From Schmidtea nova (taxonomy: Eukaryota), in contig CM097883.1 in NCBI GenBank assembly GCA_044892505.1, forward strand, positions 159,836,001 to 159,900,000: a stretch of 64,000 bases of DNA, read 5' to 3'. The notes beneath the pieces were generated by a model. The model saw only the letters and a list, made by a program, of their open reading frames with translations. It had not been told where the DNA came from and searched no databases. The stretch's first letter is position 1. Each line of letters begins with the position of its first letter. The translations under genes were made by a program, and so were the position numbers. Shown piece by piece: positions 24,618 to 58,582 of the stretch.

Positions 24618-24690
24618 TTCTGATTATTCTACTGATTAATACAGGTTACATCGATTTGTACATTTTTACACACGGATTTTTCGCCTCTTT

Positions 24691-27353: not shown

Positions 27354-27443
27354 TCTACAACAATATTTACATCAATTTCCCCATGTTTTTGATTTTTTCT
27401 GGTTCTTTATTTACACGTATTTACACAATTTTCCGCTTATTCA

Positions 27444-33900: not shown

Positions 33901-36900
33901 ATATAAACGACACATCTTGTCTTACCAATTCTTGCATTGGCTTTGATATTCCTGCATAGTCCTTGATGAATTTTCGATAATATCCACACAATCCCAAAAA
34001 TTCTTGTATTTGAGTTACTGTCTTGGGTGGTGGACATTCTTTAACTTTCTCGATATTTCTTGGATCTGGTTCTTTTCCTTTTGCTGATACAATGTGACCT
34101 AAGAATGTCACTTTCTCTTTTGCCCAATCGCACTTTGACGGCTTCAATTTCAGCTTCCATTGCCTTAATTTCACGAACACATTTCTGATGTCTTGCAAGT
34201 GATCCTCGAATGTTGCGGAGTAGATCAATAGATCGTCGATGTACACCATGCATTGTTTTATGCCATGTGTTACGAAATTCATGCATCTCTGGAATGATGC
34301 TGGCGCGTTTGTTAACCCAAACGGCATTTTCTTGAATTGGTACAGATCTCGTCCGATTGTAAATGCTGTCTTCTCTTTATCCTCGTCTTTCATTTTGATC
34401 TGCCAATATCCGCTTTTTAAATCTAGTGACGTGAAATAAGCTGCTCCTTGTAACGTCAACAACATTTCGTTTATGTCTGGCAGTGGGTACGTATCTCTTT
34501 TCGTAACTGCGTTCAATCGTCTGTAATCGATACAGAATCTCTGAGTTCCATCCTTCTTTTTCACCATCACCACTGGGAATTGCCAGGGTGAGCAACTAGG
34601 TTCGATGACCTCTGCATCTAACATCTTTTGTACCTCTTCTTCTGCCACTGCTTTTTGAGCTTCTGCCAATTTGTATGGTCGTAATGCTATTGGCGTTTCG
34701 TCCGTCAACGGTATCGTGTGTAATGTTACATCACAGGTTCCCAGATCTAAATCTGATGCTGCGAATATATCTTTATATTCCATCAACAGTTTCTGTAACT
34801 GTTCTTTTTGTCGTTCGTCCAACAACACACTGTCGATTTTCCATGGTAATTCGCCTTTGCTTTTCTCATTCTTGTCTGGTATTTCGATTTCGGACATGGG
34901 TGTCAATTTACCCAATCTCTCATTCTCGTATATTATCTTGTCCTCTTCGTCGAAATTTACCAGATTGATCGGTATTTCTCCTTCTTGATTTATCGTAACC
35001 AATTCTCTTGCCATTGGTAATTCTTTCTTTGCTTCGAACTTTTTACTTGGTTCGAATATCATATCTCCTTTGATTGTTGAATCGATCTTGACATAGCACA
35101 TCATTTCGTGTCTCGCTGGCACTACTATTTGTTCCGCACTTGCCACTTTAACTTTCATCCTGCAGATTTTTCCTGTTCTATCTTTTAGTTTCATTGCTCC
35201 TAGATCAATTACGATTTCCTTGAACAGGTCGGGCATCAGGTCAGTTCCAATAATACATGGTACACTCAGCGATGGTATTACAGCGATGTACGTGTCGATT
35301 TCTGCACCTCGATGCTTAATTTTTACAAACCATCTTCCGGCTACTTCTACTGTCTCTTGACTGCACGCGATTACATGTACGTTCGTCTTCTCAATTTCTC
35401 CTTGGTTTTTCTCGGGTATATAGTTAATGTCGATTGCCGAAATATTCGCGCCTGTATCGATCATTGCTTCAATTTCTCTTCCGTTTATTTCTACGGTTGT
35501 TGTTAAGATTGGTCCCATGTTTGTGGACATAACCGCTATCGTGTGCGTGTCTTCCAATGAGTCTACGCTTTTACCTCGTTTTACTTTGCATCCTTCTGGA
35601 ATTATCGGGTATATACTTGTCATCGGCATCATCTGCATCATATTCGGCTTTGCTTTATATATAGGTTCGTTATACATTGACTGAGGTGGAGCGCTGTATC
35701 TCCAATTCTCAACTGTACTCTTTTCGTTGTATTGTGGAATCTGGTTTATATTCGCTTGTCCTCCTCGATCGTCATCATCATCGTCATCATTACTTGAATC
35801 ATCTTGTGTTCGATATCCTCTCACTCTTTCCCATAATCCTTTCCTTTCCTTCTTCAGTTGTCGTCTTGCTTGTTCATCTTGCATTATCTTTTTGAATTTT
35901 CTTCCGACATCTTCGTTAGTTCCTTTCATTTTTGCAAGTATCTTCAACAACCTCTTTATTCGATGTATGTCTTTCGAGTGTCCATGTAACACCATCGTTT
36001 TCGCAAGGAATGGTAAAAACCCTACTACCATTTTCCAATTCACTTTCTTTTCTCTCTTGTAGATATCGAAACACGCTAACATTTGCGTTATTATCACTCT
36101 GACGATTTGTATTATCAATATAACACCCAGTATTCCAGCCATCATTTGTCCAAATATCAGGAATCTTCCCCACATTGCCTTCATCATATTTTCTGTGGCC
36201 TTCTTGAAATGTGCCGGTGACAACAACAGTTCGTAATTCGGTCCTTCTCGATAATTCGTTCCTCCCGTTATCGTTACGATATTTGACAGTAATGCTTCTC
36301 TTCTTGCCGGGAATAATATATTCTGTCTTGCTGCTTCCAGATCTTTTGGACTATAGATTCCGTTGTTTGAGACATCTACGTCACTGAACTGTCTATCCTT
36401 TGACAACTGCATTAGCTCAAATTCTCTTGGTGCTAATACTTCAGTTCTTCCTGGGAACATGACCCATTTGCCATCTGGCTTCTGATAAAGCGGTCCGTAC
36501 GCGTTACTACAGTTGAATGGATTTGGTTCAAAACCTGGTGGATTGATGATTCTCGTCACCGGTTGAACGTATCGTACTTTTCCTTTGTAATCGATTTCTA
36601 GTTCGTTTGTACATTGTCCAGGTTTCAACTGCGTTGTTGCTGCTAGCGATGCGTGTGTCTTTTCGCAAATGTATACATACATTGCTTCTCCGACCACTCT
36701 TCCGAAATGTCCTTCTCTCAGTGGTAATAACGGCATCGCGCTATCTGGATTCGTAATCGCTACGGCCAACTTTGTCTTCAATATTTCTCGATTCAGTATA
36801 CAATCGTTATTTATCAGATCATAGTACACTTTTTGCAATGAGGCTTGACCTCTATGGAATAAGAAATCCATTTTATTATTCACATACAAGTGTAGCTTGA

Positions 36901-39900
36901 TATCCATTGTGTCGATCTTGGGTTTCGCATTCGGCACTTCTTGTTTCGACACGTATATTCCTGGATAGTTTGTTTCGTATACTGTTGTACTGCACTTAAG
37001 GGTTGCTTTCCCTTTTATGAATCTCATGCCTACATCCTGATTTGTGGTTATCAACACTGTTGGTGTGGTTCTCATCTCTATTCGTTTTTCTCTATGATCT
37101 GGTTTCAATTGTCTTTTATTCTCTAAAGCCTCTTTGAGATGTTTTGCTCTAGCTTTGTCATCATCGTCTTCTTCTTGGAAGGTTTTTCCTTGAATTTCGT
37201 CGAACTTTGCTCCTTGTAGCAGTTGTAATTGACATTCGTTCACTTTTGGTTTATACACCAAAGTTGACATTCCCGTTTGACACATGCTTCTGTCAATTTT
37301 ACACATGGATAACGTTTTCATTTCTCCTGTTGTTGGTTCGAAGAATGCTTCGTAGCTTTTCAGTTCGACTATATACGTATCCATTACCACTAAGTTGGTT
37401 GCAGGTGCTCCAAATATCGGATAGGTTTCTCCTTGACAATATCCTTCTCCTCCCGTAATCCGTCCTGCTACATAATACGTCTGCTGCAACATCATTCCTG
37501 GCTTTCCTTTTATCTTGATTTTGTCTCTCGTTGTCACTTCTCCATGTTTGAATAATGCTTCACAGTCTTCTCCTTGTAACACGATTGGTTCTCTTTCGGT
37601 TCCTGGCATGACAATTGCTGAATAATGTCCTCTACCACAATAGAATGCGAATCTCGTCTTTTGCACTTTGCATTCATTCACCATTGTCTTTATTAGTTCT
37701 GCCTCTTGATATACGTGGTACCATTGTTCTTTTTTGATCTCTTTCAATTCTACTGGAGTTGCATCTTTGCATTGCTCCGTACCTCTCAATGAGTACTTTT
37801 CTCCCAACTTCATTTGATCACAGTCAAATACTTCAAATGTTGTTACACCCTCTGTGCTTAACAACCATACTAACATCATCATGATTATCGAGTTTAAATT
37901 CAACGTCGATCTCCCGTTTCCTTGCATCGTTTGTCTATTCTCCATTTCTCTCAATACTCCTTCGAGTTTCTTTCTCATAACGTTAGACCCTTCTTTTGTC
38001 TGGTTCTCTTTTATGAACTTTTCCCATCCTCCTTTTCTGAGGATATATGGTTCAATTTCCTTCTCGATAATCATCGCCGTATTTTTAATATGTCTTCCCA
38101 TCGGACTTGACTTCGGGCTTCCTCGGCTTAGCGTTAACAAATTGTATATTGTATACGCGATTGCTACCAGATATTTGCTGTCCGTCTCTGCTCCGTTAAG
38201 TAGCCTTTTTATCAACATCGTGGTTCCTTGCCAATCTAGATGATTCGATTTTGTTTTTGCCTTTATCAATTCTGGCATAATCGGTGCTATTGCATTGTGT
38301 AGCATCCTTGCCTTTGTACTGGGTTCGTTTATTCGCCACAAATTCTTTAATTCCGGGTCAATTATTGCTAACACATCCATTATCGTTTTGGTGAGCCATT
38401 CTTCTCCTTGGCAGACTTGATTCTCTTCTTTTCCTCTGATTTCTGCGATTTTATCCAGTTTCTTCAAGCAAATCTCCCATTGCTCTTGTCTCCTTTCTTC
38501 CCTTGTCTTTGGGATTGTTGTTGCTGGATCTATCTTTGGTCTTCCTCTTGGTCGTTTCTCCATTCCCGTTCCGGTTTCTACAAATCTCGCTGCTCTTCCT
38601 GTTTCCTCTGTAACATCTCTTCCTTCGTTCGCTCGCTGTTCTAACCATCTTTCCATTTCTTGAGTAAACTGTGGTTGTTCTTGTTCGTCTTCCGAATCGT
38701 TTACCATTTCTATGACTACCTCCTGTTCCACTCCTTGATCGTCGATTTCTGCTGGTGACGTTATTGGCATCTCTACTATTCTGTCAAAAATGTTCGCCGT
38801 TGGTTTTTGAGTCAGTTTCGTTAATTCTTCTATCGCTTCGTCACTGTCTGTTAGTATCTCATCCACGTCATACGCTTCTGGCGGTGTTCTCTCTCTCGTT
38901 TTTATTGGTGTTGTCCTTGCTTGTCCCGAACTTGTTCCTGGGGTCATTGTTGACTTCATCGGACTTGGTGTACTCATGCTTCCTTTCGCTTTCTTTTCCT
39001 CTTTAAACTTCAGTGGTTGACCCACTATCTGTGCTACTGTTAACGTATTCATTAGATCCAATTGCACTGGTGTCAGCCAGATTTCCAAATTATTATCCAA
39101 CGATCGTCCTTGATGTTGCAGGTGGAATGGTAGTTCGTACATCAGTTTCTCTTTAACGCTTTTCACTTTTTCTGTTAGCATCACCCGAAACTCTTCTTTT
39201 CTTTGATTCGGATACATTATCCTCAAATGTATTTTCTGTGGCGTTTCTTCTGCAAACTCTTTGTTTCTCCACTTTTTTATTACATCGTCTAGTTGCTCTG
39301 GACACCACTCGTTAACTCTCTTGTATTCTGCTATCGCTTTAGCTACTTTTCTCAAGTTCGTTATGTCTTCTCCATTTGTGATTATGAATTGTGCTAAGCC
39401 TTTTATTGTTTGTCTCTTTCCCCGAGTATTTCCTCTCAATAGCTCGATCAATTCACTCGTTTTCTGTTTCTCCAATTCTGCCCATATTGCTGCAGTTTCT
39501 GGTCCGTCTAAGTCCGTTGGTAATAACCTCCTTGTTACCATACATATCCGTTTCGTATTCCGTTCGTGTCTGTCTTCTCCTTCCGGATCTTCTTCGTACA
39601 CGCCTCCTTTCACTTTCCAACATTTCTCTTTGTTATCCCATTGTTTCTCTACTGGCGTCAATCGTCGTCTGTTAAGATCCAATTCTCCCAAGATTGTCTC
39701 CCATTCTGGCTTCATCTGCCAGTTCCGATAGATTTCTACTATCTGCCTCAGCTTACGCATAACGTCCTCTTGTCGTTTCTTTTTCCTTTCCTCATCTCTT
39801 GGTGTTGCTCTTTGCACATCATCCATTCTGATGACATGTATTGTCTGATAATTATCCCATATGCCGATTTTATACGCTCGTCTTTCATCACGTTCATTCA

Positions 39901-42208
39901 GTAGATGTTCTTTGTATTTTATCGCTATGTCATCCTCAAATTCGTCTTCCCGTTCTCGTTGTAGTATCGTCTCATTGATGACCTCTACTATTTCTCCCAC
40001 TTTACTATCTGGTATTACCTCAATTTGTCTTGTCTCTTCGTTTGGTAATCTCACGGTAATATTCAGATCTGATACCTCTCCTCGTTTAAACATTTCTTTT
40101 CCCATCTTGGCAATTAGCTTGTCCGTCTTGAAATTTGAATGTCTCGTTTGACTTGTATCTCGTATGTTCTCGATACACTGTTTCAAATTCTCATACTCGC
40201 TTTTCGTCAATTCCTTTCGATGTTTCTTGATTTGTTGGATGATCTGTTCTATCATCGTATTCAAATTCTCCGCCAAGATTCTTTCCTTTGCCTCTAGCAA
40301 CTGAGGTTTTATTCTCATCTCATAACACATATTCGCTTCTTTGACGATCCCTTGCAAGTTCTCTTCCTTTTTGGTGTTGCATATAGATAACGTCGTTATT
40401 TCTCCTGGCCATATGCCTGTGTCTATCATATGCGTTCCTTTTCTCACCAATCCGTTTTCCGAATATATGAATTTGTCTTTGTACGAGCTTCCCAATCTGT
40501 CTTCAACCCATCGGTAAATTCCATCCGTCATTGGGTTCCTTATCCAGATTCTCGGTGAACACTCGTTTATCCATATCTGTATTATGTATTCGTTGAGTGG
40601 TTCTTTCAATAACCTCTCTATGAACTCTTGTATTACTCTCACTTCTCTTTCTTGTAACCACTTTTTATACTTCATCTGCCATACTGCTCGTATAAACTTT
40701 CGATATCGTTTCGTGTCGATAAACTCCTCGTTATGGATCACTTCCAACGCGTTATCCATCAGCTTCTGAATTTCGTCTTCCGTTACTGACAATGTTTCTA
40801 TTGTCTCGACTACTTCCATCTTTTTGTCCTCGTTTTCTGGTTCCTTTAGCATGTCTCCTGCCAGACTGCTAACTTCACTGTCGTCTTCTTCATCTGACAA
40901 CTCTTGTCTTGGGTGTCTCAGCATCCCAATATGCGCGATTGGTCTCGTTTCGTTTTTGCTGACTTCCTGGGTTAGTTCCTTCTCGTTTCCCATTATTTCG
41001 GCTTTTCCCATTCTTTTCTCCAACTCGTCTATTTCTTCCAACCGTCTTCGTCTTATTTTTCCTTTGAATATTCGACTGATCCGGGTTTGATGTTTCACTG
41101 GTGGTGGGATTTTCTCCGGTTCCACCTCTCTGATGATCATCACGTTTATTTTCGTCTCTGTTACTCCCATATCTTCCCATATATCAGTCATCTTTAACTT
41201 TACTTCTGGCAAATCCTCTGTTTGTAGGAATGCTTCTCTGGGCAGTTTCGTCACTCCCGGAATCATCTCATTTACTTTATTGAACAATCTTCCTACTTCT
41301 TCTTTTACATCGTATTTGAATCGAAATACGTGATCATTCGGCATGATCACCAACATTCCTCTTTGTTTGATTCTCACTCCCTCTTCTTGATTCGTTTCTC
41401 TTTCTGTTTCTGTTTCTTTTTCCACTTCTTCATCTTTTGGATTCCGCTCTGCGGTTTCTACTGCCTGCTTCACTTTTTCTTGTTTCTGCTCTTCGTTTCT
41501 TTTCTCTTTAACTTCTAACTCGTCTGACTCATCCTGCTGCTTCTCTTCCATCATCGCTCGCATCATGTTGATCCTTGGATTTCCCTTTTTTAACTGTTGT
41601 AATCGTTGTTGCCTGACTTGTTCTTCTTCTCGTCGTACTCTAGCCCATTCTTGATTATGTTTCTGTTGGCTCTCCCTATTTTCTCTTTCAGCCTCAGCTT
41701 CTATTAGCTGGATCATGTTTATCTTTGGTTGAGCCGCTTGCTGGCTTCCCTTTGCCATGCTTTCGATTATCTCGTGTAATCTGGATACCTCCTGTCTCAA
41801 CTTGGCTTCTTTCATACTGGCTTCATTTGCACTGCTGTTTGGGTTATTCCGTTGTTGACCCTGATTCCCATAGCTTGGTCGATTCTCGTAATTCGGTCTA
41901 TTTCCACTGTTTGACCAACTTCTCTGTTGATTACAGTCTCTTGACATGTGTCCGGTTTTTCCACATGTGTAACACGTTTTCCCATAACATCGATTTTCTG
42001 AGTGACCCTTTTGTCCACACAGTTTACAGGCTACGTTCTGAAAACACTCTTGTTGCCAATGTCCGTTTTTCCCACACGTCTGACATTGCCTATTCTGCCT
42101 GTCATTGTAACTATTTCCTCCATTCGGGTTCACCGTGATATATCCGTTGTTTTTCGTCGCTGGCGGTTCTTTGAACAATCTCTGCGAATGGGGAATACTT
42201 TGATTCAT
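27917..42208 (-). CDS. pol: 4763-aa polyprotein (NC, Ubl, Bcl-2-like, Env, PR, RT, RNase H, IN, ankyrin, FN3-like, TM)
   Basis: Single uninterrupted ORF; motifs are listed in the sub-features. Confidence 0.97.
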   Translation of the reverse strand: MNQSIPHSQRLFKEPPATKNNGYITVNPNGGNSYNDRQNRQCQTCGKNGHWQQECFQNVACKLCGQKGHSENRCYGKTCYTCGKTGHMSRDCNQQRSWSNSGNRPNYENRPSYGNQGQQRNNPNSSANEASMKEAKLRQEVSRLHEIIESMAKGSQQAAQPKINMIQLIEAEAERENRESQQKHNQEWARVRREEEQVRQQRLQQLKKGNPRINMMRAMMEEKQQDESDELEVKEKRNEEQKQEKVKQAVETAERNPKDEEVEKETETERETNQEEGVRIKQRGMLVIMPNDHVFRFKYDVKEEVGRLFNKVNEMIPGVTKLPREAFLQTEDLPEVKLKMTDIWEDMGVTETKINVMIIREVEPEKIPPPVKHQTRISRIFKGKIRRRRLEEIDELEKRMGKAEIMGNEKELTQEVSKNETRPIAHIGMLRHPRQELSDEEDDSEVSSLAGDMLKEPENEDKKMEVVETIETLSVTEDEIQKLMDNALEVIHNEEFIDTKRYRKFIRAVWQMKYKKWLQEREVRVIQEFIERLLKEPLNEYIIQIWINECSPRIWIRNPMTDGIYRWVEDRLGSSYKDKFIYSENGLVRKGTHMIDTGIWPGEITTLSICNTKKEENLQGIVKEANMCYEMRIKPQLLEAKERILAENLNTMIEQIIQQIKKHRKELTKSEYENLKQCIENIRDTSQTRHSNFKTDKLIAKMGKEMFKRGEVSDLNITVRLPNEETRQIEVIPDSKVGEIVEVINETILQREREDEFEDDIAIKYKEHLLNERDERRAYKIGIWDNYQTIHVIRMDDVQRATPRDEERKKKRQEDVMRKLRQIVEIYRNWQMKPEWETILGELDLNRRRLTPVEKQWDNKEKCWKVKGGVYEEDPEGEDRHERNTKRICMVTRRLLPTDLDGPETAAIWAELEKQKTSELIELLRGNTRGKRQTIKGLAQFIITNGEDITNLRKVAKAIAEYKRVNEWCPEQLDDVIKKWRNKEFAEETPQKIHLRIMYPNQRKEEFRVMLTEKVKSVKEKLMYELPFHLQHQGRSLDNNLEIWLTPVQLDLMNTLTVAQIVGQPLKFKEEKKAKGSMSTPSPMKSTMTPGTSSGQARTTPIKTRERTPPEAYDVDEILTDSDEAIEELTKLTQKPTANIFDRIVEMPITSPAEIDDQGVEQEVVIEMVNDSEDEQEQPQFTQEMERWLEQRANEGRDVTEETGRAARFVETGTGMEKRPRGRPKIDPATTIPKTREERRQEQWEICLKKLDKIAEIRGKEENQVCQGEEWLTKTIMDVLAIIDPELKNLWRINEPSTKARMLHNAIAPIMPELIKAKTKSNHLDWQGTTMLIKRLLNGAETDSKYLVAIAYTIYNLLTLSRGSPKSSPMGRHIKNTAMIIEKEIEPYILRKGGWEKFIKENQTKEGSNVMRKKLEGVLREMENRQTMQGNGRSTLNLNSIIMMMLVWLLSTEGVTTFEVFDCDQMKLGEKYSLRGTEQCKDATPVELKEIKKEQWYHVYQEAELIKTMVNECKVQKTRFAFYCGRGHYSAIVMPGTEREPIVLQGEDCEALFKHGEVTTRDKIKIKGKPGMMLQQTYYVAGRITGGEGYCQGETYPIFGAPATNLVVMDTYIVELKSYEAFFEPTTGEMKTLSMCKIDRSMCQTGMSTLVYKPKVNECQLQLLQGAKFDEIQGKTFQEEDDDDKARAKHLKEALENKRQLKPDHREKRIEMRTTPTVLITTNQDVGMRFIKGKATLKCSTTVYETNYPGIYVSKQEVPNAKPKIDTMDIKLHLYVNNKMDFLFHRGQASLQKVYYDLINNDCILNREILKTKLAVAITNPDSAMPLLPLREGHFGRVVGEAMYVYICEKTHASLAATTQLKPGQCTNELEIDYKGKVRYVQPVTRIINPPGFEPNPFNCSNAYGPLYQKPDGKWVMFPGRTEVLAPREFELMQLSKDRQFSDVDVSNNGIYSPKDLEAARQNILFPARREALLSNIVTITGGTNYREGPNYELLLSPAHFKKATENMMKAMWGRFLIFGQMMAGILGVILIIQIVRVIITQMLACFDIYKREKKVNWKMVVGFLPFLAKTMVLHGHSKDIHRIKRLLKILAKMKGTNEDVGRKFKKIMQDEQARRQLKKERKGLWERVRGYRTQDDSSNDDDDDDDRGGQANINQIPQYNEKSTVENWRYSAPPQSMYNEPIYKAKPNMMQMMPMTSIYPIIPEGCKVKRGKSVDSLEDTHTIAVMSTNMGPILTTTVEINGREIEAMIDTGANISAIDINYIPEKNQGEIEKTNVHVIACSQETVEVAGRWFVKIKHRGAEIDTYIAVIPSLSVPCIIGTDLMPDLFKEIVIDLGAMKLKDRTGKICRMKVKVASAEQIVVPARHEMMCYVKIDSTIKGDMIFEPSKKFEAKKELPMARELVTINQEGEIPINLVNFDEEDKIIYENERLGKLTPMSEIEIPDKNEKSKGELPWKIDSVLLDERQKEQLQKLLMEYKDIFAASDLDLGTCDVTLHTIPLTDETPIALRPYKLAEAQKAVAEEEVQKMLDAEVIEPSCSPWQFPVVMVKKKDGTQRFCIDYRRLNAVTKRDTYPLPDINEMLLTLQGAAYFTSLDLKSGYWQIKMKDEDKEKTAFTIGRDLYQFKKMPFGLTNAPASFQRCMNFVTHGIKQCMVYIDDLLIYSATFEDHLQDIRNVFVKLRQWKLKLKPSKCDWAKEKVTFLGHIVSAKGKEPDPRNIEKVKECPPPKTVTQIQEFLGLCGYYRKFIKDYAGISKPMQELVRQDVSFIWGIEQQAAFETLRDKLITAPILVHPDFKKPFLLATDASGYAAGAVLGQFDEEGKERVIGYYSRTFRKHERNYSVTEREAYAIILAIKHFKYLLWGHEIYITTDHQPLVWLGQHKESSSRLMRWAMQLQEYSPFIKFKAGKANANADCMSRFTFPELVNLNALKICALIAEDLDFSELRKDQLEDEELGLISKYLKEREIEIFGKNQTLREHMQKYQHRYVMEKGWLLIQDGERRLMCLPANRRKEIMTQYHDGKLGGHMSAKKTIGRLRQKYFWPTMEDDVKEWIRNCLTCATRKNVGTKWKTPLKPMPISAEPMATIAMDVVGPLPESLKGNQYILVVTDYLTKFPEAFAIPDQKAKTVARILVEETCCRYGTPKKILTDQGTNFMSEILDEVTNYFRIAKLRTSPYHPQTNGQTERFNGTLIRMLSNYVSKHQTDWDEYINLCLMAYRMSIHAATKLSPFQLMYGRDCNLPIDLEYQPPLSQYMEVDDYVTKFKERMQEIWKTAELNIKFYQESYKDLHDQKKNVKAHDLKVGDWVIIETPEIIPGTVKKLQRPGKGPYEITTVNENNVRVRLVNNPLVRPIYVNACRCRKIPKTATLSPEKRVMTRSQTARINMLRVQQKLQTSLEDNRREAINIKELAKRTREIIPEWKWWHDFNILSEVRKNVMDYAKDRTAHPITRTLLEEIPQTLNLQDKDGNTALHNAIKHSGNEKVKEIVEMILEGGGEIDKVNWEGITPLMMMTIHGRDEEIVELFGNTRSSWMAKDKEGRTFLNHAIDRANHRILKYITENATWEIDELTRGSIMKQAIGVKNSKTWRILLKWKRPEGDSWVIDCNEVFTKGENALLKHLLEVTYDPKTLAVLIARDTLRVSENPREYKLEDRKKELFGLIKKWCDKQWNPDMSFEHFYDIQKQHKEISKRYKELMEALKYGQFFRQAVYQDQRMKQMQTRIRSKAVLFNAKADNQERLDAIVAKTQERLSEFKENKNSLEILGAITEKVHRYAQGDYNESDIETIKNQMPVTFLLSKDGRLPIHWALRRKKENEALEITKAMVKCEADMNTVDDNGDTIMIIAARKKTKLKVLNELYEAGAKIEEKNGKNNSIIDIAIQWNNFEMIKFIKSIKKQDDIEYLANNVKNFSLTVMIHDIEKTRALLTWVNPITKEPVFKINDHMEQNQNWCIRSALLRHKKPEIVEEFLKRRDLKFTNNPKEQERTGRWKDLFRKYVNEWANAKETIKQSGLENIEPSKDMEIREFESSTLAVQAYERLIKEINVEDDISKGPGGGYKDFDDKSNNEKNNEDNDNKRTEDNEKERQEEPKPTRNDKKEEAEERENRGTKDESTNYGKRAGSLLLRPEMLCIAILITIIGQGEAKKQYVTLEIIRGNEVYERICWKENLKKNDTLKCILSDLKRDVIQIKGLEKEKSYIICAVKQRGEPKAPQVTACQLYKATEALKIQKWIGKRSEETTRRTEVESEKGKNQSEAEEGIRNRTEKERITKNPAGKLTFQPELICVALILILIKRIMEDIDISVMTLVNIQDQRTTNGRCWGRNNEVIGISETRESREAETNEEIEITEIETDKKCELCLMEKAANGNRPGTSECKVFQAKEIIEFPKRKKQDQETIANEVVTVEIKSIGRRTIGMCWRKYIGVPTSNVIPQCRTRERGIPFQLNGFEVGQAYEICVIRRIREIIQRSLECKLYKTPEQINGTRTIEMGRSRQRKRKSRRTTTANSQGVQQVTTERTTIEKEPESTTLIIWKIHKKVLEICWTLMPNSMGKSPRNCQKTSNDKGEIIEVEMRKLKTNAEYEVCAIEEVDAQGNPQERCETYYTPIKRRIKKLEFREFSQKREQNEKEEKLPNQQERWEPEKVIEEVRQRQQQYEQWEAEWKGQYGVMTNQSETPKMSIGKTIMGLISMGVFIGCIPLITIMIVCWRYGMRNKTIAVKWPDVKVTNYNIKLPKEVREELKRRSKHEEMWVQIEDEELYEGKPVIVV
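28100..29850 (-). other. Polyprotein C-terminus: two signal-like hydrophobic segments, four FN3-like Cys repeats and a TM helix (approximate)
   Basis: Repeated pattern CW....C....(G/K)L....YE(I/V)C...C..Y.TP; duplicated AG(S/K)L..(R/Q)PE(M/L)(L/I)C(I/V)A(I/L) hydrophobic leaders; TM IMGLISMGVFIGCIPLITIMIVCW. Confidence 0.6.
30540..31830 (-). other. Two ankyrin-repeat clusters downstream of integrase (approximate)
   Basis: QDKDGNTALHNAI, NWEGITPLMM, KDKEGRTFLNHAI; SKDGRLPIHWAL, DDNGDTIMIIAA, NGKNNSIIDIAI. Confidence 0.88.
32150..33200 (-). other. Integrase domain (approximate)
   Basis: HDGKLGGH...CLTC, MDVVGPLP, LTDQGTNF, GQTERFNGTL, GPY motif. Confidence 0.96.
33470..34700 (-). other. Reverse transcriptase and RNase H domains (approximate)
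   Basis: LDLKSGYWQI, YIDD (34232-34243), ATDASG, EREAYAII, TDHQPL. Confidence 0.97.
35180..35515 (-). other. Aspartic protease domain (approximate)
   Basis: AMIDTGANISAI (DTG at 35450-35458), CIIGTDL. Confidence 0.95.
35980..37890 (-). other. env: Envelope glycoprotein domain, chuvirus/herpes gB-type (class III) (approximate)
   Basis: Internal signal IIMMMLVWLLSTEG, mature start FEVFDC..YSL..C, Cys-rich ectodomain with CILNREILKTKLAVA...GEAMYVYIC...CTNEL...YVQPVTRII, furin-type REKR (37082-37093), C-terminal TM. Confidence 0.8.
38000..38402 (-). other. Bcl-2-like domain (approximate)
   Basis: BH2-like YILRKGGWEKF (38015-38032 encodes GGWEKF); degenerate BH1-like LLNGAETDSKYLVAIAY; helical region of the expected size. 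Confidence 0.65.
41935..42087 (-). other. Nucleocapsid, three CCHC zinc knuckles
   Basis: CQTCGKNGHWQQEC, CKLCGQKGHSENRC, CYTCGKTGHMSRDC. Confidence 0.95.
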
Positions 42209-42244
42209 GTTTCTTTTTCCTTGTTCTTCATCTTCTGTCGTTTT

Positions 42245-42802
42245 TCACATTACCGCCGTAATTCTCATGTCGTTCATTGCCATATGCAATTCGAATAGGT
42301 TGGCTGCCTCCAACGCTTCATCTACCGTTTTACATCCTTTGCATCCCACTTGTGCTCTGATGTCAGGTCTCCTGAGACCTCGTACGAATAACGCTGTCAT
42401 CAATTCTTCGTCTACTGGGCTTCCTCTATTGAATGCCAGTTTCGCCAACTTTCTTAATTCACTTGCGTACACCGCATTTGACTCATTTCTCCTCTGTTTT
42501 CTTGCTGAGAACTCATCGAATGCTTCGTTCAACACTTTATTTATCCCAAACGTCTGTTGGAAGAACTCCTTGATTGCTTCCCACGTTCTGGGTGGATTAC
42601 TTCCCGATCTCTTCTCAATATACAGATCCAATGCGCTATCTTTCAAGTATAGCGGGATTCGATTCGCTAACGTTTCTGCACTCCATCCGCATATATCCAC
42701 GAATATGCCAAATTCCTTCAGGAACGTGTCCAATCTACTGGCGTCTCCATTAAATGGTTCGCCCTTGAATTTTTCTCTTAGATCCTCTCTGTGATCACTC
42801 AT
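42245..42802 (-). CDS. gag: Gag capsid domain of giant element, in frame with the polyprotein across one TGA
   Basis: Retrotrans_gag-like (PFNGD...TWEAIKEFF...RKQRRNESNAVYASELRKLA...LFVRGL). TGA at 42245-42247 is followed by 12 sense codons and then the polyprotein ATG. Confidence 0.88.
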   Translation of the reverse strand: MSDHREDLREKFKGEPFNGDASRLDTFLKEFGIFVDICGWSAETLANRIPLYLKDSALDLYIEKRSGSNPPRTWEAIKEFFQQTFGINKVLNEAFDEFSARKQRRNESNAVYASELRKLAKLAFNRGSPVDEELMTALFVRGLRRPDIRAQVGCKGCKTVDEALEAANLFELHMAMNDMRITAVM

Positions 42803-43678
42803 CCCGATTCCACTATCTTGGAATACTGTACTAGTTTTCTTTACTTCTAGTTCACCACTTGTTTCTGAATTCGACTCTTCTTCTTCGCTACTCTCTGTTT
42901 CGTTATCTCTTGATTCGCTTCTTGTTCTGTTTTCCCTGACTAGTTCACTGTCTATCGTCTCTACTTCGTTTTGTACTTCTAGATCTTCTGGGGTTTCTTC
43001 TTGATTCTCTTTATTACTCGAATTGTCGCTGATCTCTACTTGTTTGTTCTTTTGTTGCTTAGGCTTGTTACCTGTTCTTGTTCTTTTTGCTGCTTTTCTC
43101 TCTGCTTCCGTTAAGATTGGTATTATACCTGATCTTGTTTCTCGTCCCTCAATTTTGTCTATTCCTCAACTTCTTATATTCTCAATTGATTTTCTACTCC
43201 GCTTTTGTTTTGCTTCTTCTTTGCTTTGTTTCCTTTGATTGCTCTGACTGCTAGATTGCTTTGAATTGCTTGATTGATTTGTTTCCTTAAAACAAATAAT
43301 CACTTACACGATACGTCCCCGTTATCGTGTTTCTCGTCCCTCTCACGGGTGTAGTCATAATTCATGAAGATCCCCATTTTTCCCATTTCCCTTGATTTTA
43401 AGTCTATTTAAATTATCTATGCAGTCGCATCAATTATCTATTCTTTATCAAATACACCAATTACTTTTCCCCAGTTCCCCAATTACTTTGTCGCTCAGCG
43501 CTCTTATTATCCCCTTTACTTTTCTCAGGCTTCTCTGGCTCTGAGTTCAAATCCCCCTTATCTGTCTACTACTCTATTTCCCAACTATTCGCTTTATCTC
43601 CTATTCGCACTACGTTTACTACTTCATTTCAATTCTCATCTCTACTCACCTTTACTTCAACTGACATCTCTCGTTGGC

Positions 43679-44141
43679 CTGCTGGGTTTTCCAGTCAGCG
43701 CTTTTAATCTCACCTTTTATCTCGAACTCTGTTTCTCTCAACTTCACTCATTATCTCATTAGCCTGCTGGGTTTTCCAGTCAGCGCTTTTAATCTCACCT
43801 TTTACTTCTGCTTCATTATTCTCGACCTCAATTGTCGTTTCATTAGCCTGCTGGGTTTTTCCAGTCAGCGCTCTTATTATCCACCCTTTATCTCTTCACT
43901 GTCGACTTTTAACTGCTCGTTACTCCGATGATCATCACTTTTGACCTGCTGGGTCTTCCAGTCAGCGTCCTCAATTTTACCACTTTATTATCGTTCACTT
44001 TTATTCTCTCGATCTTTCCTGATCGTTATCATTGACCTGCTGGGTTTTCCAGCTAGCGTCTTTACCACTTTACTGTCCTAACAAACCGGTTTCATTTTAT
44101 TCCCATCGAATCTCATGGTCTGCTGGGTTTTCCAGTCAGCA
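43679..44141 (-). repeat. Six spaced copies of a ~22-nt hairpin motif in the 5' leader
   Basis: Plus-strand CTGCTGGGTTTTCCAGTCAGCG starting at 43679, 43764, 43848, 43946, 44037 and 44120. Confidence 0.9.
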
Positions 44142-44468
44142 CCCTCCACTTACTCACTTTACTTTGCTACTCCTCCTTGTATGCATACTTTAACATCATT
44201 AGGCCACATAATCAGCTTTACTCGCATTTATCAATACCCAGGTGCGCACCTTCAACTCTCTCGTTATTAATTCGGTTTCTTTCAACCCTTATTCCTCATT
44301 ACTCGCTATTCATTTTCACTATTCATCATTTATCCTCATTATTATTTATTCATCTCCATTATCGCTTGTTGATCTTCACTATCCGGATAGTTTTATGCGT
44401 AATTTAGTCCTCATCTGCCTCACTTCGTCGTCTTTCTCGTGGGCTTTTACTCAATATTTTATTTCGAA

Positions 44469-44753
44469 CGAGAACTATGCTCACTGCTGAGAACTATGCT
44501 CACTAACGAGAACTATGCTCAATGACGAGAACTATGCTCAATGACGAGAACTATGCTCAATGACGAGAACTATGCTCACTAACGAGAACTATGCTCACTG
44601 ACGAGAACTATGCTCACTAACGAGAACTATGCTCACTGACGAGAACTATGCTCACTGACGAGAACTATGCTCACTGACGAGAACTATGCTCACTGACGAG
44701 AACTATGCTCACTGACGAGAACTATGCTCACTGACGAGAACTATGCTCACTGG
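44469..44753. repeat. 19-bp tandem array, 15 copies, with degenerate copies to ~45090
   Basis: CGAGAACTATGCTCA(C/A)T(G/A)A x15 (285 bp). Confidence 0.97.
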
Positions 44754-45786
44754 CAAAACATGGTTGTTATGAGGGTTTTGCTTACTGATGGAAACTCTTT
44801 GCTCCGGGGACTATGTTCCCCGATGAGAACTATGCTCACTGATGGTGACTACAGGAATTATGTTTCCTGATGAGAACTAAGCTCACTACAATGACTATGT
44901 TTATTAATGAGAACTACGCTCACTGATGAGGACTATGTTCGCTGGTCTTGTGTTTATTACTGAGAACTCTGCTCACTACGAGATTTATATTTCTGGACGA
45001 GAACTATGCTCACTATGACGAGACCTACGCTCACTAGGATGTTATGTTTTATGACGAGACCTATGCTCACTATGAGACCTGTGCTCACGAACGAAAACTC
45101 GAAATATCATCTCTCAGTGGTTGCATGTGTTGCTTCGGGATGTTCCTCCCAGTGGTCACTTATGCTTCTTCGGAGAATCTATTGTCGCGTTTCGTTAAGT
45201 TCTATCTTTCAAGAACTATGGGCAAATCCTTTCTCTTTAGGACCCCTTTTATCATTTCCTTTCTTTCAAGGATTTCATTTACCCTCGAGTTTTCCTTTAC
45301 TCGGTTCATCTATTATACCCCTTTATTCTGTTATCTATTCATCGACTTCTCTAGTTGATTTTACCTTATGCGAGCTGATTACGTGCCTTTCATCATATAC
45401 TCCGTTTTGCTATTCATCTTACTCATTTCATTGCTTTCTCTCTCTCTTACTGATCAGTTTATCATCCTATTTTTTATAGTTTTTTCTGCGCGCGCCTAAC
45501 CTCATTGAGTTGTCCCTACCTTTCACCCCAAGCAAAATATATAAAAAGATCGCATTGGTCCACTGATGCACGATGTGGTGATCAGTCACATCACAAGAGC
45601 TTTCCAATATCCGCGATTGGATCCCTTTCTACACATCTCGGGTGAGTTGATCAGTTGGTTCCCCCCAATGGGTGCTTATCGGACTACTCGTGAGTAGCTC
45701 ATTATTACTTAGGTCATTTTTACCAAATCCTTATTAAACCCTCATAATTTCAATAACAACTGCACTTGCTCAAAACTTTATTTCTA

Positions 45787-46245
45787 TTACAAGTACACTG
45801 CTATTTTCTCGGATACGGGAAGGTTGCACATAGGACATCGTTCGTTTATTTTACAGTCATTACAGAATCGGAAATGCCCACATGGCAACAACATTATCTG
45901 TATCTTATTCATTTCACAGATATGACACGTCAGATATTGTCTCGTATGTTCTGTTGTTATTCTTATCCACTCATCGTGTTTTGTTGTTAACTGTTGTTCT
46001 AGCCTGTGGCACTCGATATTCATCTCAGGGTTGTTTAATCTTTCTCTATACCACTGATATCGTGTTGCTGTATCCACTGTGTTCTTATTCTCACTTAAGC
46101 TCATCATCCTTTCGGCTCTTTCTGTGTTGTTTGTCGGTTCGTGATATTCTCCTACCTCGAGTCGTTTTAACTTTCTCGTTATTGTCTCCACTGTCTCGTT
46201 GTTTGTTTCGAAAAACGTTTGCATTTCTTTTATTTTGTTCTCCAT
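45787..46245 (-). CDS. Cargo ORF, 152 aa, C-terminal IAP/Mdm2-type RING finger
   Basis: CHIC...PCGH..CNDC....CPMC ending in hydrophobic IAVYL*, the terminal RING arrangement of IAP-type E3 ligases. No BIR seen. Confidence 0.85.
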   Translation of the reverse strand: MENKIKEMQTFFETNNETVETITRKLKRLEVGEYHEPTNNTERAERMMSLSENKNTVDTATRYQWYRERLNNPEMNIECHRLEQQLTTKHDEWIRITTEHTRQYLTCHICEMNKIQIMLLPCGHFRFCNDCKINERCPMCNLPVSEKIAVYL

Positions 46246-46762
46246 CCCCTGAATGAATTCTCGTTAATTTTGTTATCGATTTTTATTTATTATTTATCAT
46301 TCCTATTCTATGGTAGCCCTACTGTTCGCTTTCTGTTGTTCTGTTTTACGTCGTTACTTGCGTATCCCCCCGTGTTCTTGAATGTCGCCCCGACATGATC
46401 ATTGCTAGTTGCTCACACTCATACCATTTTCATGCGCTCTTTTCATCATACTTTTACATCATGCATACTTCACTTTTCATACTGTCACTCCACATACTAT
46501 TCATCCTGCTTCATTCATCCTCATATTTACACATTCATACTTTCGTTCTCTTGCATACTTTTATCATGCTCATCATTCTCATTATTTTACACTCATACTT
46601 TTATTTATTATTTTTCAACCCGATTCATTCTTGCTTCAGGACCCTCAAACCCTCTATTATTTACTTTACTTTTCCTCGCTAAATTCGATTCCATCCCGGT
46701 TCATGCGCTCTAAAACTGTCCGCAGATATCGAATTCACTTTTTCCCACAAAGATCGATTTGA

Positions 46763-46780
46763 ATCCCGGCTGAGCCCCCA
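46763..46780 (-). promoter_or_regulatory. Primer binding site, tRNA-Pro-like
   Basis: Sense TGGGGGCTCAGCCGGGAT, 6 nt after the 5' LTR. Its complement ..ATCCCGGCTGAGCCCCCA resembles the tRNA-Pro 3' end (..TCCCGGACGAGCCCCCA in many animals). Confidence 0.75.
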
Positions 46781-46786
46781 AATTTA

Positions 46787-49700
46787 TGCTGGTGTGTTGG
46801 TTAGATTGACAACTGAGATCATTAGGATTTTATATGTTAGGGTGATCTCGCCAACATAAAAACATTCCCCCGCTGACACCCATGATGTATCCCTAACTAC
46901 TCATCATGTTGGTGCTGTGTCAACGTTGTGAAATGACAAGGCAGGTGAGCAACCTTTCGGCTACTATTCCCTTGTTTATTCACGGGTCCGCCACTACCGA
47001 TAGAAGGTGTCTGTGGCTTTCTTTCGGTCCCACTTATGCTCTTTTCTATTGTCCTAGGGTGATTTAATCTTAGCGCATCTGCAGTTTTTCATGAATCCGG
47101 GTTTTATTTATATTCAATTCTCAGACATTCCACACACAAACAAGACAAGTCAAATCATTCGTTTTATACATTTATTTATAGTTTAGCAATACAGAGGGAC
47201 GGATTACATTTAGTAGTTCTTGCTCGAATAGACCACTGAGCAAGTCTACCTCTATTCCTACGCGATCTGCATATGCGCGTCTCTCCCTGCGCTTTTTCGC
47301 TCCCAAGCGATTCCGTCTCTTTGTCCGTTTCGAGCCTTCCAGAATTATTGGGGATGTTGTGGTAGTTGTGATTGGGATGGTTTCTATTTCCGTTTGGGTA
47401 CTTGTTGTCCTCGATATTGTGTCCACCCACCGATTAAAGGTGCTAGCCCTGATCACTGGGCGTAATTGCTCGGTGATGAACTCCTGGGTTGATGCCCTCA
47501 AGTAATTCGACAGCTCCATCTTTAGTGCGGCGACCTCCCTAGCTTGCTCGTCGATTGTTCGTTCCGCCCTGTATCTGGCTTGTAAGATGGCTTTAACCCT
47601 CTCCGGATTAAACCATGTTGTCTTAATTCGCTGGTGCTCCTCATTCAGTTGTCTCAAGCGACTCTCGAGGACACGAGATCGTGCTCTATGTTCGTGTGAC
47701 TCTTGCTTGTAATTTCGATTTGGGATTTTCGTCCATATCTGAGTAATGTATCATTAACTAGGATATATATGCATTGTTTGGTTTCTCAGTCATCATTTTA
47801 TGGTTAAACAACTGCATTCCTATCCTTACTCATTCCTCATACATCCCAAATCAAAACAAAAACCCTTTTAAATGGATACATATATTTGCGATTCACAACA
47901 GATATTCGTTTATTGGGTGTTGTCCTCGTGATCAATTGTATGGTCGTAACTCTTGATTGGCCGGGTTCTCGTCTCGGCGAATCCCTGTTTCATGGTATAG
48001 TTCGGGGGCTGGATTCCAACTCAGTTTGTTTTGATAAATGAACACCTCCCAGAGGCGAAGGTCTTTGGGCTCGGGGTGTTGATCCACGGAAACACTGCCT
48101 GGGGCATTCGGGTAAACGAAGACTTCCCCAGTGTCACCACACCGAGGCCTGTCTAGCAGCAAATACCCGAGTTGGCCGAATGCCTGCCCGGTCATCATTC
48201 CGGTGCTTAGTACCCAGCGGGGTTGTCGTGTTTCATCTACAAATTGATAGAACCATCTCTTGTACCCATCTTTGGTGGGGTTCGGGGAGGGCGTCCAATC
48301 GACATCACCTTCCCACCTCAGCTGTAGTTGGAATGCACAGGCGGGAATACTTGCCGCGGTGCTCATATGGGTCCTTGTCCATCGACGCAGGTGTCTACGT
48401 GCGGAGTTGAAAATTTGGCGTGGGGCCTCCTTCTCTCCTTGGATTTCGGTAGGTACTTTTGGTGTGACGACGGAGCGGATGCGCCGTTTCCTCCGTAGAA
48501 TGTACTCCTCTAATTTGACGGTTAGGGGTTCTGTCGCATCCTTTACGAGATATTCTGTTTTCATTCTGTCCCTCTGAAATGGAATTTTAAGTTAACTGAC
48601 AGACTCTATCATCGACCATCGATATTTATGTCGATCAACCTACTTGGTTTATTGTTCTACTGGCCGTAGGCCTTAGTAGTTCGTACATAATTTACTAGAC
48701 TATTGGTCGCAGTGTTCAAGTAGGTGGTGAATTTACTTGGGTGAGTTGATACACTCCGCAATTTCAGTCGGTTTTAGCTATGCTCATTTAGGCTGATTAT
48801 TTACAATCAGATTTTTTGTTACATTAAATTTCTCATCGATCATTTTTATTCATCAAACCTGGTTCATTCACAGAGCATCATTAGCAACTATCAAGATTCA
48901 CGTCGCGGGAAAAATTTTTTGTAATCCCTTAGTCGACTACTGTGTCGAGAAACGCACTAATTTTTATCTACTATCGGGTCTGACTTTTCATGCCCTTTGT
49001 GGGTTATATGTGTATATCTAACAGCTCATTCGGTTCACTACTGTGCTTTGGTGCTAATGTCTTTTGACCGCGATGCTACGCTTTACCTACCTCAATTCTC
49101 GTTGATTTTTATGTACTAGCACTCCTTGAAGGTACACCCCTCGTCACGGTACCTCATGCATATATTTTCCCTTGCGAAATAAGCTTTACCTCGATTTTAT
49201 TTATGACCATTAACTATCACTCGATACCCTATCATCGTGATGTATAACGTTTATACTAGGTCATCTCTACCTTGATTTAGTTCCTGATCATTAGGTCTTA
49301 CTCGATACCCTATGTGCATTTAACCCCTTCCGCTTTCCAAATATTTAGTACACCTATAGTCCCGCCGCATCAGCACCTCACAACCGAAAGGTTGTGTTGC
49401 GCTGAGAGGCCCGAGAATCCGTCAGGCTGTTAGGCCTCCGGAAAACCTTATGGATTTTAATATGATTAACAATTATAATTATGAGGGTTTAAAGTAACAA
49501 TCCAACACACAACAATTACCTTTTATTTTTCCTTCAAGTTGATTTTACAATGTTCTCAGTGCTCAACTGCAAGATACACTTGGTAAAAATGACATTGTCA
49601 AATACTGATTTGACTTCAGTATTTATACTGAACCGGTGTTGTTGGTTAGCCAATCAGCATCGAGTATGTGTGTATGTTTGCTTCATTTTTCATGTTGTCG

Positions 49701-50028
49701 GCTTTTTGCTGCCTAACTTAACTTGCCGATTTGTTTGGTTAATCATGCGGTAAGTTTTTCTTAGTCATCAATTTATTTTATTTTATTTTTGTTTTAGGTC
49801 TTTGGTGACATCCGCCCACGCGCTGTCATATTCCAATTTTATCTGCTTCGCATGAGTGAGTTTTGAAGATTTTTTGTTGTTTTGATTTATATTTTATTTC
49901 TTTTAGATGTTGCCGCCTATTTTGTTACGCTTTGGTGTTGGTAATTTATTTTGTTGTTATTCTGTATTTAATTTATTTTATTGATTGTATATTATTTTCA
50001 GATGCTGCTCGATTTGGCTGGCCCAACA
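46787..50028 (-). repeat. 5' LTR of giant element (3242 bp)
   Basis: Direct repeat of 20647-23887. Contains ORF-A (47932-48564) and ORF-B with a +1 frameshift near 47720. Confidence 0.97.
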
Positions 50029-50871: not shown

Positions 50872-51030
50872 ATTTTGAATGATTAAATATTTGCTCTAAA
50901 CAAATATTGGTTAAATAAAACAAAATTAAGATTTCTAACTTTTTATAAATTCTCTACAACGGAAACATAAAGTTATTATAATATCGAAAAAATGATGGCC
51001 TATTATTAATAAAAACACGAAATCGCCAAA

Positions 51031-51076
51031 CAATAGAAATATATTTCAAGGACATAGTCCTCATCATCAGTCTGCC
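51031..51076 (-). ncRNA. Minimal hammerhead-ribozyme-like motif in pLTR (copy 1)
   Basis: Sense GGCAGA-CTGATGA-T-GAGGAC TAT GTCCTT-GAAA-TATAT-T-TCTATT: core boxes, stem II, palindromic stem III, imperfect stem I. Confidence 0.65.
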
Positions 51077-51141
51077 ATCATAATCTAAATCAAATGTTAT
51101 ATACGGAAACAGTAATGACGTAATGGCTATGATTTAATGAG

Positions 51142-53610: not shown

Positions 53611-53619
53611 CAGTCTGCC
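53574..53619 (-). ncRNA. Minimal hammerhead-ribozyme-like motif in pLTR (copy 2)
   Basis: Identical to copy 1; overlaps the annotated ORF start. Confidence 0.65.
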
Positions 53620-53684
53620 ATCATAATCTAAATCAAATGTTATATACGGAAACAGTAATGACGTAATGGCTATGATTTAATGAG

Positions 53685-54101
53685 TTAATTAAATAATCTC
53701 AATAAATTCGTTGCTGATTGAATATTAATTGTAGGGGATTGTGATTTAATCACCAACGCCTCACATAATATTCTTTCCCATTTATTATTAAAGTTTTTTA
53801 ATATAATTTTAAAATCTTTAAAATCAGTTTCTATTATACACATTTTTCTATGCTCAATAATATTACTCACACCTCTCGATCGGCTATGTTCCTGAACCCG
53901 TGTGCGGAGATGACGGGAAGTCTCTCCAATGTTTGTGGCATTGCACCCATTACAAGAAAACTTATACACTAGATCAGAAACTAAACCTATTGGGGTTTGA
54001 GATTTATTACTAAACATATTTACTGATTTTAAAGACTTAGACACTATGTTAAATATGTTAGAATTTCCTAAGGATTTCATTAAAGAACACTTAAAATTTT
54101 T
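53685..54101 (-). pseudogene. 5'-truncated duplicate of the Penelope GIY-YIG C-terminus
   Basis: Near-identical to 51142-51560 with a few substitutions (YIG to NIG). Confidence 0.9.
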
Positions 54102-55073
54102 AAATATATTTCTATTGTTTGGCGATTTCGTGTTTTTATTATAATATCTCTTATTTTTGATATCGAGTGCAGGTACTTCGTGAACCAACCACGTAGGTTG
54201 CAAATTAGTTAAGTCATGAGATGTCGTTGAGGGAAACTACTAGTCTAACTTCGAATGTATATGAATAATATTTTGGATAAAACGTTTGGATGCAGTGTGC
54301 TATATGTGAGGCATTGATGGATGAGAGGAAGTAAATTGTATGGATGTATGAATTTCCATGTGTGAGGTGAGATGTGGATGTAGATTGTTGGCTGCGGTAA
54401 GTGGATGGATTTGTGAATATCGATGTTGGGATGTGAAATTGTTTAGAATAAGGGATGTTAGATTTGTGAATGTATTGGTGATGTGAGATGGAGTGATTGC
54501 AAGTTGGTGTGTATACTTTTATAGATTTATTATGAATTTCCATTTTTGGTGATTGTTTGTTGGATAAGATAGGTAATTCAATGATGGATGAGATTGAATG
54601 AGTGCCTGTGTGAATTTTTAAAATTTCTAAAAATAATAATTCAATTTTTATAATTATGAATTTTTCAAATAACTAAATTAGAAATTTCGTGAATTATTAT
54701 AAAGTTTTTAATTTCTAATTTTCCTATATAAGTTAGGGAACATATAAATTTTAATTTTTACACAATTTATAAAATAATAAAATTCTAAATAAATTTTTAT
54801 ATATTAAAATCTGAATTCTAAAATAAATCAAAAATAAATCAAAATCAGCATAATATAAATTTTCCGGTAAGATTTTCAATATCCCATTCTTTCACATATA
54901 TCCGAGTAAACTCTGTAAAAATTTTATAATATTTATAAATTGATGGTAATTTTAGATTAGGAACTTTAATATCTTTATAATTTAAATTCAACTCTTCGTA
55001 TCATAGCCTTTTGATGGCAGGGTTTTTGAATTTTATTTCCGATCGTATGTGAATTGGTTGATAAAATATATAT

Positions 55074-58072: not shown

Positions 58073-58582
58073 TTATGCATGTATATTCTTTCACTTGGTA
58101 CAGTATTAACGTTGCCAAGCAAAGGGTGCCAGCGAAGGGAAAAAGTTTTTATGCTGATGTAAGTGAGTCAGGCGATAAGCTAGAAAATATATAGTTAAAT
58201 AAAAGTCGACTCTCTACACAGACAATAGCTTTTGAATTCATGATACACTCCATTGCACTACAGTACCAAATATGTTAAATAATTTTTTAAGACATAAAAA
58301 TCACTTAATTCTAATATTTACTACTAATTTTAGAGGTCTTCAAATTTTAATTTTAAAAACTAAAATAAAAACTTAGATAAAAATTTAATGACTATTATAT
58401 AAAAAATAAATTTATAAAAATAATTATATAAAAATTTTCCATTATAAATTTCAATCTATTCTATATTCTATTCTTAAATATTGAAATTAACAAACCGATT
58501 TTGTTATTCCTAATAAAAAATAACCTTGAACAAGTTGTACTTTTCAGTTTATTAAACGAACGATTTTTAAATTAGAATAATA

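Follow-up and report, generated by a model that had tools for sequence, protein, structure and literature searches.

A covarying bulged-A hairpin array in the leader of a Burro-like planarian retrotransposon: candidate packaging sites on unspliced genome RNA

Known cis-acting hairpins and the Burro-like host element

The operator of the phages MS2 and PP7 is a fixed-loop hairpin with a bulged A that covers the start codon and is read by the leviviral coat protein. In retroviruses the packaging signal (Psi) typically lies closer to the primer-binding site (PBS) than 2.6–3.1 kb, and that of MLV includes a dimerisation palindrome. Retroviral packaging by binding of nucleocapsid (NC) to stem-loops of unspliced RNA is established, and the Psi of RSV, HIV-1 and FIV is described as a set of small stem-loops that precede gag, close to a palindrome, and are read by a CCHC nucleocapsid selecting unspliced RNA (PMC5035971, in excerpt). 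With HIV-1 Rev/RRE and with CERV of the C. elegans element Cer1, a protein made from spliced mRNA acts on the intron-retaining genome RNA (PMC10309623, in excerpt). Burro elements fill planarian genomes, and one of them, according to a report cited in PMC13465017, helps stem cells and regeneration. The Burro section of PMC6431247 describes elements of ~30 kb with long LTRs, a single polyprotein of ~5,000 aa in the order Gag-Env-PR-RT-RH-IN-ankyrin, in which env separates gag from protease, and TRAF/MATH and RING accessory ORFs, and its figure legend marks tandem repeats; that section is silent on RNA structure, on a splicing map and on what the LTR ORFs do. The literature searched contained nothing on RNA structure or splicing of the Burro leader; Lee et al. 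2026 (Dev Cell) and the 2018 genome paper, or their supplements, may describe Burro transcripts.

The window (the whole stretch analysed, 64,000 nucleotides of Schmidtea nova contig CM097883.1) contained an env-bearing Burro-like gypsy LTR element on the − strand at 20647–50028 (29,382 bp), with a 4-bp target duplication (AGTG) on both sides. Unless stated otherwise, its features are given below on the − strand. The 5′ LTR (46787–50028, 3,242 bp) was 99.75% identical to the 3′ LTR (20647–23887). The PBS (46763–46780), which we take to be tRNA-Pro-like, had 2,940 exact matches genome-wide. A RING-finger ORF (45787–46245), with its own predicted acceptor and an AATAAA after its stop, lies between the PBS and the non-coding leader. 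The polyprotein frame (27917–43165) has the order Gag-Env-PR-RT-RH-IN-ankyrin, with the Pfam domains Retrotrans_gag, zf-CCHC, Monjiviricetes_fusion, RVP, RVT_1, RNase H, rve and ankyrin; Gag carries CCHC knuckles, and the env part is a mononegavirus-type fusion protein. A stop at 42245–42247 was peculiar to the window copy, the frame of ~5,080 codons being open in many of the 150 gag matches scored; readthrough at this stop was considered and ruled out, since many other copies are open through 42245. Four 3′ accessory ORFs follow (24093–27794; 116, 470, 386 and 174 aa), each with a predicted acceptor 1–7 nt before its ATG, and the 470-aa product is a TRAF (RING, zf-TRAF, MATH). Burro cargo comprises TRAF/MATH, an IAP-type RING or BIR, and BCL2-like products; of these, TRAF and RING were present, a BIR domain was not found in this copy, and a BCL2-like stretch had no Pfam match.

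In size, LTR length, polyprotein order, accessory ORFs and tandem repeats the element matches planarian Burro and is set beside Burro1–4 by published description only, and its TRAF is a separate downstream ORF, unlike that of the published element (PMC6431247, Burro section). Loci picked by gag, PBS or anchor fell into seven families, labelled A–G in this analysis. Gag identity to the window copy, a member of family A, was 72% in B, 69% in C, 69% in D, 67% in F, 65% in G and 48% in E.

Other elements were also observed in the window. An ORF encoding RT and a possible endonuclease (844 aa; 51142–53676 and 50980–54236) is partly duplicated in tandem, has an inverted end and is Penelope-like by eye. 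Two repeats of 2.3 kb (9257–11532 and 55068–57373) were 90% identical and had gag/protease-like frames, and fragments at 6295–6595, 18447–18741 and 57839–58077 had a motif in common with the Burro LTR ends.

Sequence, fold and conservation of the hairpins

Six hairpin units, all on the − strand, were found in the leader at 43676–44143. Counted on the + strand they start at 43679, 43764, 43848, 43946, 44037 and 44120, which confirms the intervals of 85, 84, 98, 91 and 83 nt given by an earlier sequence-only reading. That reading had described a 7-bp stem with one bulged A; the core was confirmed, but the true hairpin is longer. From the bottom upwards, each unit of 27–28 nt has a base stem of 3 bp, then a bulged G and 3 bp, then a bulged A and 4 bp, closed by a 5–6-nt loop. 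Hairpin 1, the first in transcript order (44117–44143), reads GGU.G.CUG.A.CUGG-AAAAC-CCAG-CAG-ACC, with the base stem GGU/ACC, and occupies the position at which families B, C and D carry their single copy. The base stem is GAC/GUC in hairpins 2 (44034–44060) and 3 (43943–43969), AGC/GCU in hairpins 4 (43845–43872) and 5 (43761–43787), and AGC/GCC in hairpin 6 (43676–43702; 2 bp and one mismatch), with the predicted gag acceptor ~390 nt further downstream. The variants reported earlier were also recovered: the bulged A is displaced by one position in hairpin 2 (2+5 bp), the loop is AAGAC in hairpin 3, and hairpin 4 has a 6-nt loop (AAAAAC). The base stem thus differs on both sides between repeats, as covariation after duplication.

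A 20-mer search allowing ≤3 mismatches gave five matches in the window, all inside the array (mean of 100 shuffles, 0.00), and the core pattern had 636 exact matches genome-wide against 0 for the reversed control. The 541-nt array region folded with z = −3.27, a value equalled by none of 100 shuffles, and the core pairs had probabilities of 0.66–0.99 when folded in a 1.2-kb context. An Rfam scan gave only two sub-threshold chance matches in window positions 43000–47000 and none in three sister leaders. The spacers, 73% purine (224/305 nt), had been described as diverging: the stem is indeed better conserved, but the spacers are related, and the gag-proximal units form an 85-nt tandem with 79% matches in which two units are 96% identical across 51 nt. 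The array therefore grew by duplication.

The hairpin shares with the MS2/PP7 operator its short form and the single bulged A on the 5′ arm. This likeness, raised in the earlier reading, holds for shape; the loop, in contrast, is variable (4–8 nt), the hairpin contains no AUG, the bulged G and base stem are additional, and none of the ORFs scanned encoded a leviviral coat domain.

Within family A, conservation was compared in two sets of copies. The first consisted of 30 close copies, the best of 40 that were scored out of 163 candidates; substitutions per cell came to 0.004 in core and base stem alike, 0.002 in the loop and 0.025 in the spacers. The second set was chosen by a downstream anchor, not by the hairpin, from the first 70 of 528 anchor places (A 26, B 12, C 17, D 9, F 4, G 2). 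In the 17 full-length arrays drawn and aligned from its 26 family A copies, shared variants occurred in 3 of the 84 columns of the stem and in 64 of the 469 flanking ones (p = 0.006), so that by both measures the stem is better conserved than the sequence around it. The number of hairpins per family A copy was six in 16 copies, five in 5, four in 3, three in 1 and one in 1. Copies with six units were younger than those with four or five (median LTR divergence 0.09% and 0.25%, p = 0.013; 9 and 5 copies, 14 of 20 pairs usable). This trend may reflect an advantage of more units, and is also expected if old copies simply lose units. In a sub-lineage of five family A loci, the last repeat has U-A in place of a C-G pair.

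At the orthologous place the hairpin was present in 12/12 copies of family B, 17/17 of C and 8/9 of D (37/38 in all), as a single unit except in one D copy with a second, degenerate one. In families B and C the sequence is CUG-A-CCGG...CCGG-CAG, where a C-G pair replaces the U-A of family A, and the loops of family C vary freely (AGCAA, AACAA, AGAAA). Family D reads UUG-A-CCGG...CCGG-UAG with loops of 5–8 nt, and keeps two pairs as U-G and G-U wobbles, which pair on the sense strand only. Family E keeps at most the 4-bp upper stem (a generic scan for hairpins of the 3+A+4 form was discarded for its many AT-rich chance matches in this family), and the hairpin was absent from the gag-bearing families F (0/4) and G (0/2). 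Pairing of the base stem holds in family A only.

Among 42 distinct hairpins with 5-nt loops, selected by fuzzy motif match, 96.6% of the cells of the 7-bp core were paired, and one pair was U-A in 25 and C-G in 17. The covariation score was 0.249, compared with ≤0.124 for slid registers, and was reached by 0 of 500 shuffles. The count of three doubly changed pairs was reached by 63 of 500 shuffles, so independent covariation events are few, and stem and flank conservation did not differ significantly inside B, C or D taken singly (p = 0.7–1). Covariation between families, as U-A to C-G swaps and wobbles, was thus found as the earlier reading had asked, and since the loops vary at the same time, the hairpin is very probably a selected RNA structure, as judged from these alignments. 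Because the gag tree grouped A with F and G (support 81/100), the comparison suggests that the hairpin was lost in F and G. The distribution of one copy in B, C and D and none in F and G indicates that the hairpin is not universal and that the six-fold array is a lineage-specific amplification in family A. The earlier proposal of a multivalent RNA element is therefore borne out as to a selected structure with six conserved units, whereas its multivalency belongs to one lineage.

Three other RNA features were found in the leader. A 12-nt palindrome around GUGCGCAC (44240–44251), ~107 nt upstream of hairpin 1, is a candidate dimerisation site. Its core was present within one mismatch in 62 of the 70 anchor-picked copies, mostly 83–109 nt upstream of the first hairpin; it was missing in 8 of 9 family D copies, though D mostly retains the hairpin. 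It was predicted to fold on itself and not in a kissing loop, and GC-rich palindromes were not enriched in the family A leader (8 against 8.2 expected). A 19-nt tandem array of 15 units lies at 44468–44752, a position at which each of the other families amplifies a different small hairpin and has tandem arrays of its own. Other short repeats have been amplified in this leader by every one of families B–G, and several of them fold as small hairpins with paired variants. Compensatory changes between units were observed in the internal-loop hairpin of B and in E (GACU/AGUC and AACU/AGUU).

The third feature, a rod-like RNA of ~200 nt (45490–45705; ~1.35 kb upstream of the hairpin array), occurs in all seven families and is more deeply conserved than the array. 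In an alignment from which the structure itself was derived, 28 of its 52 predicted pairs changed on both sides and 91.4% of cells paired, compared with ≤48% for slid registers. Folded alone it had z = −2.47, and it had no Rfam match.

Predicted splicing and the LTR-encoded protein

A YAG was found 1–9 nt before the ATG in 7/7 ATG-start ORFs of the window, against 49/166 and 178/640 control ATGs (28–30%), and in 24/26 LTR ORFs of other family A copies when any Met in the first 15 codons was allowed. An acceptor was predicted just upstream of every ORF (window positions 48564, 47736, 46245, 43286, 27794, 27353, 25851 and 24617). The one before gag (43286–43300) is T-rich and conserved, with its AG ending at 43286, and no ATG occurs from there to the first gag ATG at 42802. 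The same ATG-free stretch was present in 28/28 close copies covering both sites. In 5/5 family representatives, 475–678 nt before the gag ATG were without ATG, where ~8–10 were expected (0/2000 shuffles each). An in-frame AUU (43151–43153), a candidate non-AUG start of an N-terminally extended polyprotein, was kept in 26/28 close copies. It was also observed that an AUU in the context A-x-A-AUU-GA opens the gag frame in the representatives of five families, possibly adding ~120 residues.

A 5′ splice donor (AAG|GUAAUU) was predicted at 49514–49519, where it would close a first exon of ~90 nt; it is preceded by promoter-like signals (TATA at 49627, an initiator-like TCAGT at 49608). The donor AAG|GTAATT was present in 12/16 family A LTRs, and comparable GT sites followed by T-rich tracts were seen by eye in B, C and D. 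An inverted repeat (49620–49640) encloses the TATA box in families A, B, C and D. A conserved CTCACCTGCC near the 3′ end of the LTR (~46938–46948) can be read as an antisense splice donor in families A, B and F; contigs were also very deep there, though depth carries no weight in ranking parts of the element. Contig sets from four sequencing runs, which look like DNA libraries (one loose end reads as a Tn5 adapter), gave no splice event among the joints listed. An AATAAA occurs soon after the stop of most ORFs, and the 3′ ORFs are 70–120 nt apart; such short gaps are seen in operons processed by trans-splicing.

From this map, the array is probably removed from gag-pol mRNA at acceptor 43286. 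As it lies inside a predicted intron, it would be retained only in unspliced genome RNA. The sequence-only reading had counted splicing-out of the region against a functional element; the predicted removal from gag-pol mRNA is no refutation, because the array would then be confined to genomic RNA. SL trans-splicing may take the place of cis-splicing, and acceptor-to-ATG distances keep no frame; it too would strip the array from gag mRNA, so the consequence would be the same.

The LTR encodes two ORFs. ORF-A (47932–48564, in the 5′ LTR) was 61–93% and ORF-B 78–94% identical among family A copies, against mostly 98–100% for gag, which could reflect fast divergence or LTR exchange. ORF-B is uninterrupted in the 3′ LTR (21032–21595), where it comprises a coiled coil, a Thr/Pro linker and an arginine-rich helix, and is frameshifted near its start in the 5′ LTR (47172–47736). 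It is kept in families A–E and G with a basic motif, G-x-(R/K)-x-R-R-x-R, and the basic block was near-invariant in 14 family A copies although ORF-B as a whole was only 78–94% identical among them. The arginine-rich block was predicted as a helix after the coiled coil (residues 136–167; model pTM 0.33). A conserved acceptor of its own predicts that ORF-B is spliced. No homologue was found, no Pfam family was common to more than one of 12 members, there was no fold match (best E 2.7; best Atlas score 0.76), and no homology to Rev, Rex, Rec or CERV was found. A leucine-rich tail was noted by eye as a candidate export signal.

Possible functions of the hairpins

The leader resembles retroviral Psi in its small stem-loops upstream of gag and near a palindrome, here a candidate dimerisation site, and Gag, with its CCHC knuckles, is a putative binder. 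It differs from Psi in repeating one hairpin type six times, in lying 2.6–3.1 kb from the PBS and in that gag is predicted from spliced mRNA. We tentatively propose, at somewhat less than an even chance, that the hairpins are multivalent Gag/NC packaging sites on unspliced genome RNA, beside the palindrome. The LTR first exon of ~90 nt would be spliced to each acceptor, yielding gag-pol RNA that contains neither PBS nor array. With the leader missing from its mRNA, Gag, made in trans, would have to find genomes in trans, and the genomes of many co-resident copies (as the number of PBS matches suggests) would compete for it. The signal for selection would be the hairpins on their purine-rich spacers, next to a palindrome that possibly seeds dimerisation; a hairpin that is intron-only, family-specific and repeatable is what trans selection of genomes would need. 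An element with more copies of its family's own hairpin would be favoured, and this advantage is proposed as the reason why every family amplifies some small hairpin in its leader. The families with no hairpin (F, G) or only the upper stem (E) argue against a packaging signal universal to Burro. A broader version is on balance unlikely, if with a real chance: that all Burro proteins, including an AUU-start Gag-Env-Pol, come from spliced mRNAs, that a Rev-like LTR protein on the rod exports the genome, and that private hairpins reflect a packaging arms race among co-resident families.

Sites with which Rev interacts typically contain a purine-rich internal loop, and the hairpin has none, which weighs against reading the array as accessory sites for a Rev-like ORF-B that coats the intron and exports genome RNA, with the rod as the main response element. 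We regard this reading as unlikely. The conserved basic motif, the predicted arginine-rich helix after a coiled coil and the separate acceptor favour it, as does the gypsy element Cer1, which needs CERV, from spliced mRNA, for genome export (PMC10309623, in excerpt). ORF-B resembles Rev and CERV in its arginine-rich helix and coiled coil, but not in sequence or fold; its basic motif could be a nuclear or nucleolar signal, and its export signal was seen by eye only. Moreover, the hairpin does not track ORF-B, family G having ORF-B and the rod but no hairpin. It is the rod, not the bulged-A hairpin, that resembles the RRE, and from its conservation the rod is the better candidate for a response element of ORF-B. 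Decidedly unlikely is a role in RNA processing, in which a bound host or element protein would weaken the gag acceptor downstream of the array or the RING polyadenylation site and so set the ratio of genome to mRNA. The array does lie between the AATAAA after the RING ORF and the gag acceptor, the single copies of B and C stand at a fixed 203–210 nt from the downstream anchor, and eight predicted acceptors in one element need such control; however, no known splicing-factor motif was common to all families, and in family A the distance from array to acceptor changes with copy number.

That B, C and D succeed with one copy, that family A ranges from 1 to 6, and that tandem arrays grow in this leader in all families would also fit a single functional hairpin, the other five having arisen as the template slipped in a leader prone to repeats, and adding nothing. 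Every one of the six units, though, is better conserved than the spacers, and the base stems were re-paired differently in different repeats, so that selection acted on the duplicates; slippage as the full explanation is very unlikely. On the + strand the units contain TGGGTTTTCC, which we take to be a Rel/NFAT-type consensus. A DNA enhancer made of such sites is highly improbable, even though the loop matches the stem in conservation within family A and the element encodes TRAF and ankyrin repeats: family C breaks GGAAA yet keeps the stem, compensatory and wobble changes are not expected of a DNA site, and 5.5 kb separate the array from the predicted promoter. The seven RHD factors of S. mediterranea (PMC13563047, in excerpt) favour the enhancer; a PF00554 profile search of the S. 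nova genome gave 0 candidates, and was uninformative because the profile was silent in controls too. As the fourth ORF, gag lies 6.4 kb away from the predicted start site, and the conserved in-frame AUU suits non-canonical initiation; both could speak for an internal ribosome entry site that includes the hairpins and serves gag-pol in the unspliced RNA. We consider this barely probable, as the ATG-free stretch starts near the conserved acceptor in five families, fitting splicing and scanning, and several ATGs lie between array and acceptor.

The element type is already known, and the hairpins would be a variant of retroviral-type cis-acting hairpins, new as far as the literature was searched. 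In metagenomes, the 80 of 120 loci listed had a single match each and no array, and these were taken as chance. On the expression of Gag from a 29-kb element with many ORFs, and on the way in which such an element selects its genome RNA, the same literature was silent. For both questions the locus supplies cis-elements open to test, namely the covarying hairpin, the palindrome, the rod and the splice map, together with a candidate for the trans factor. Hairpin number ranges naturally from 0 through 1 to as many as 6 among the co-resident families, which makes packaging competition among them directly testable.
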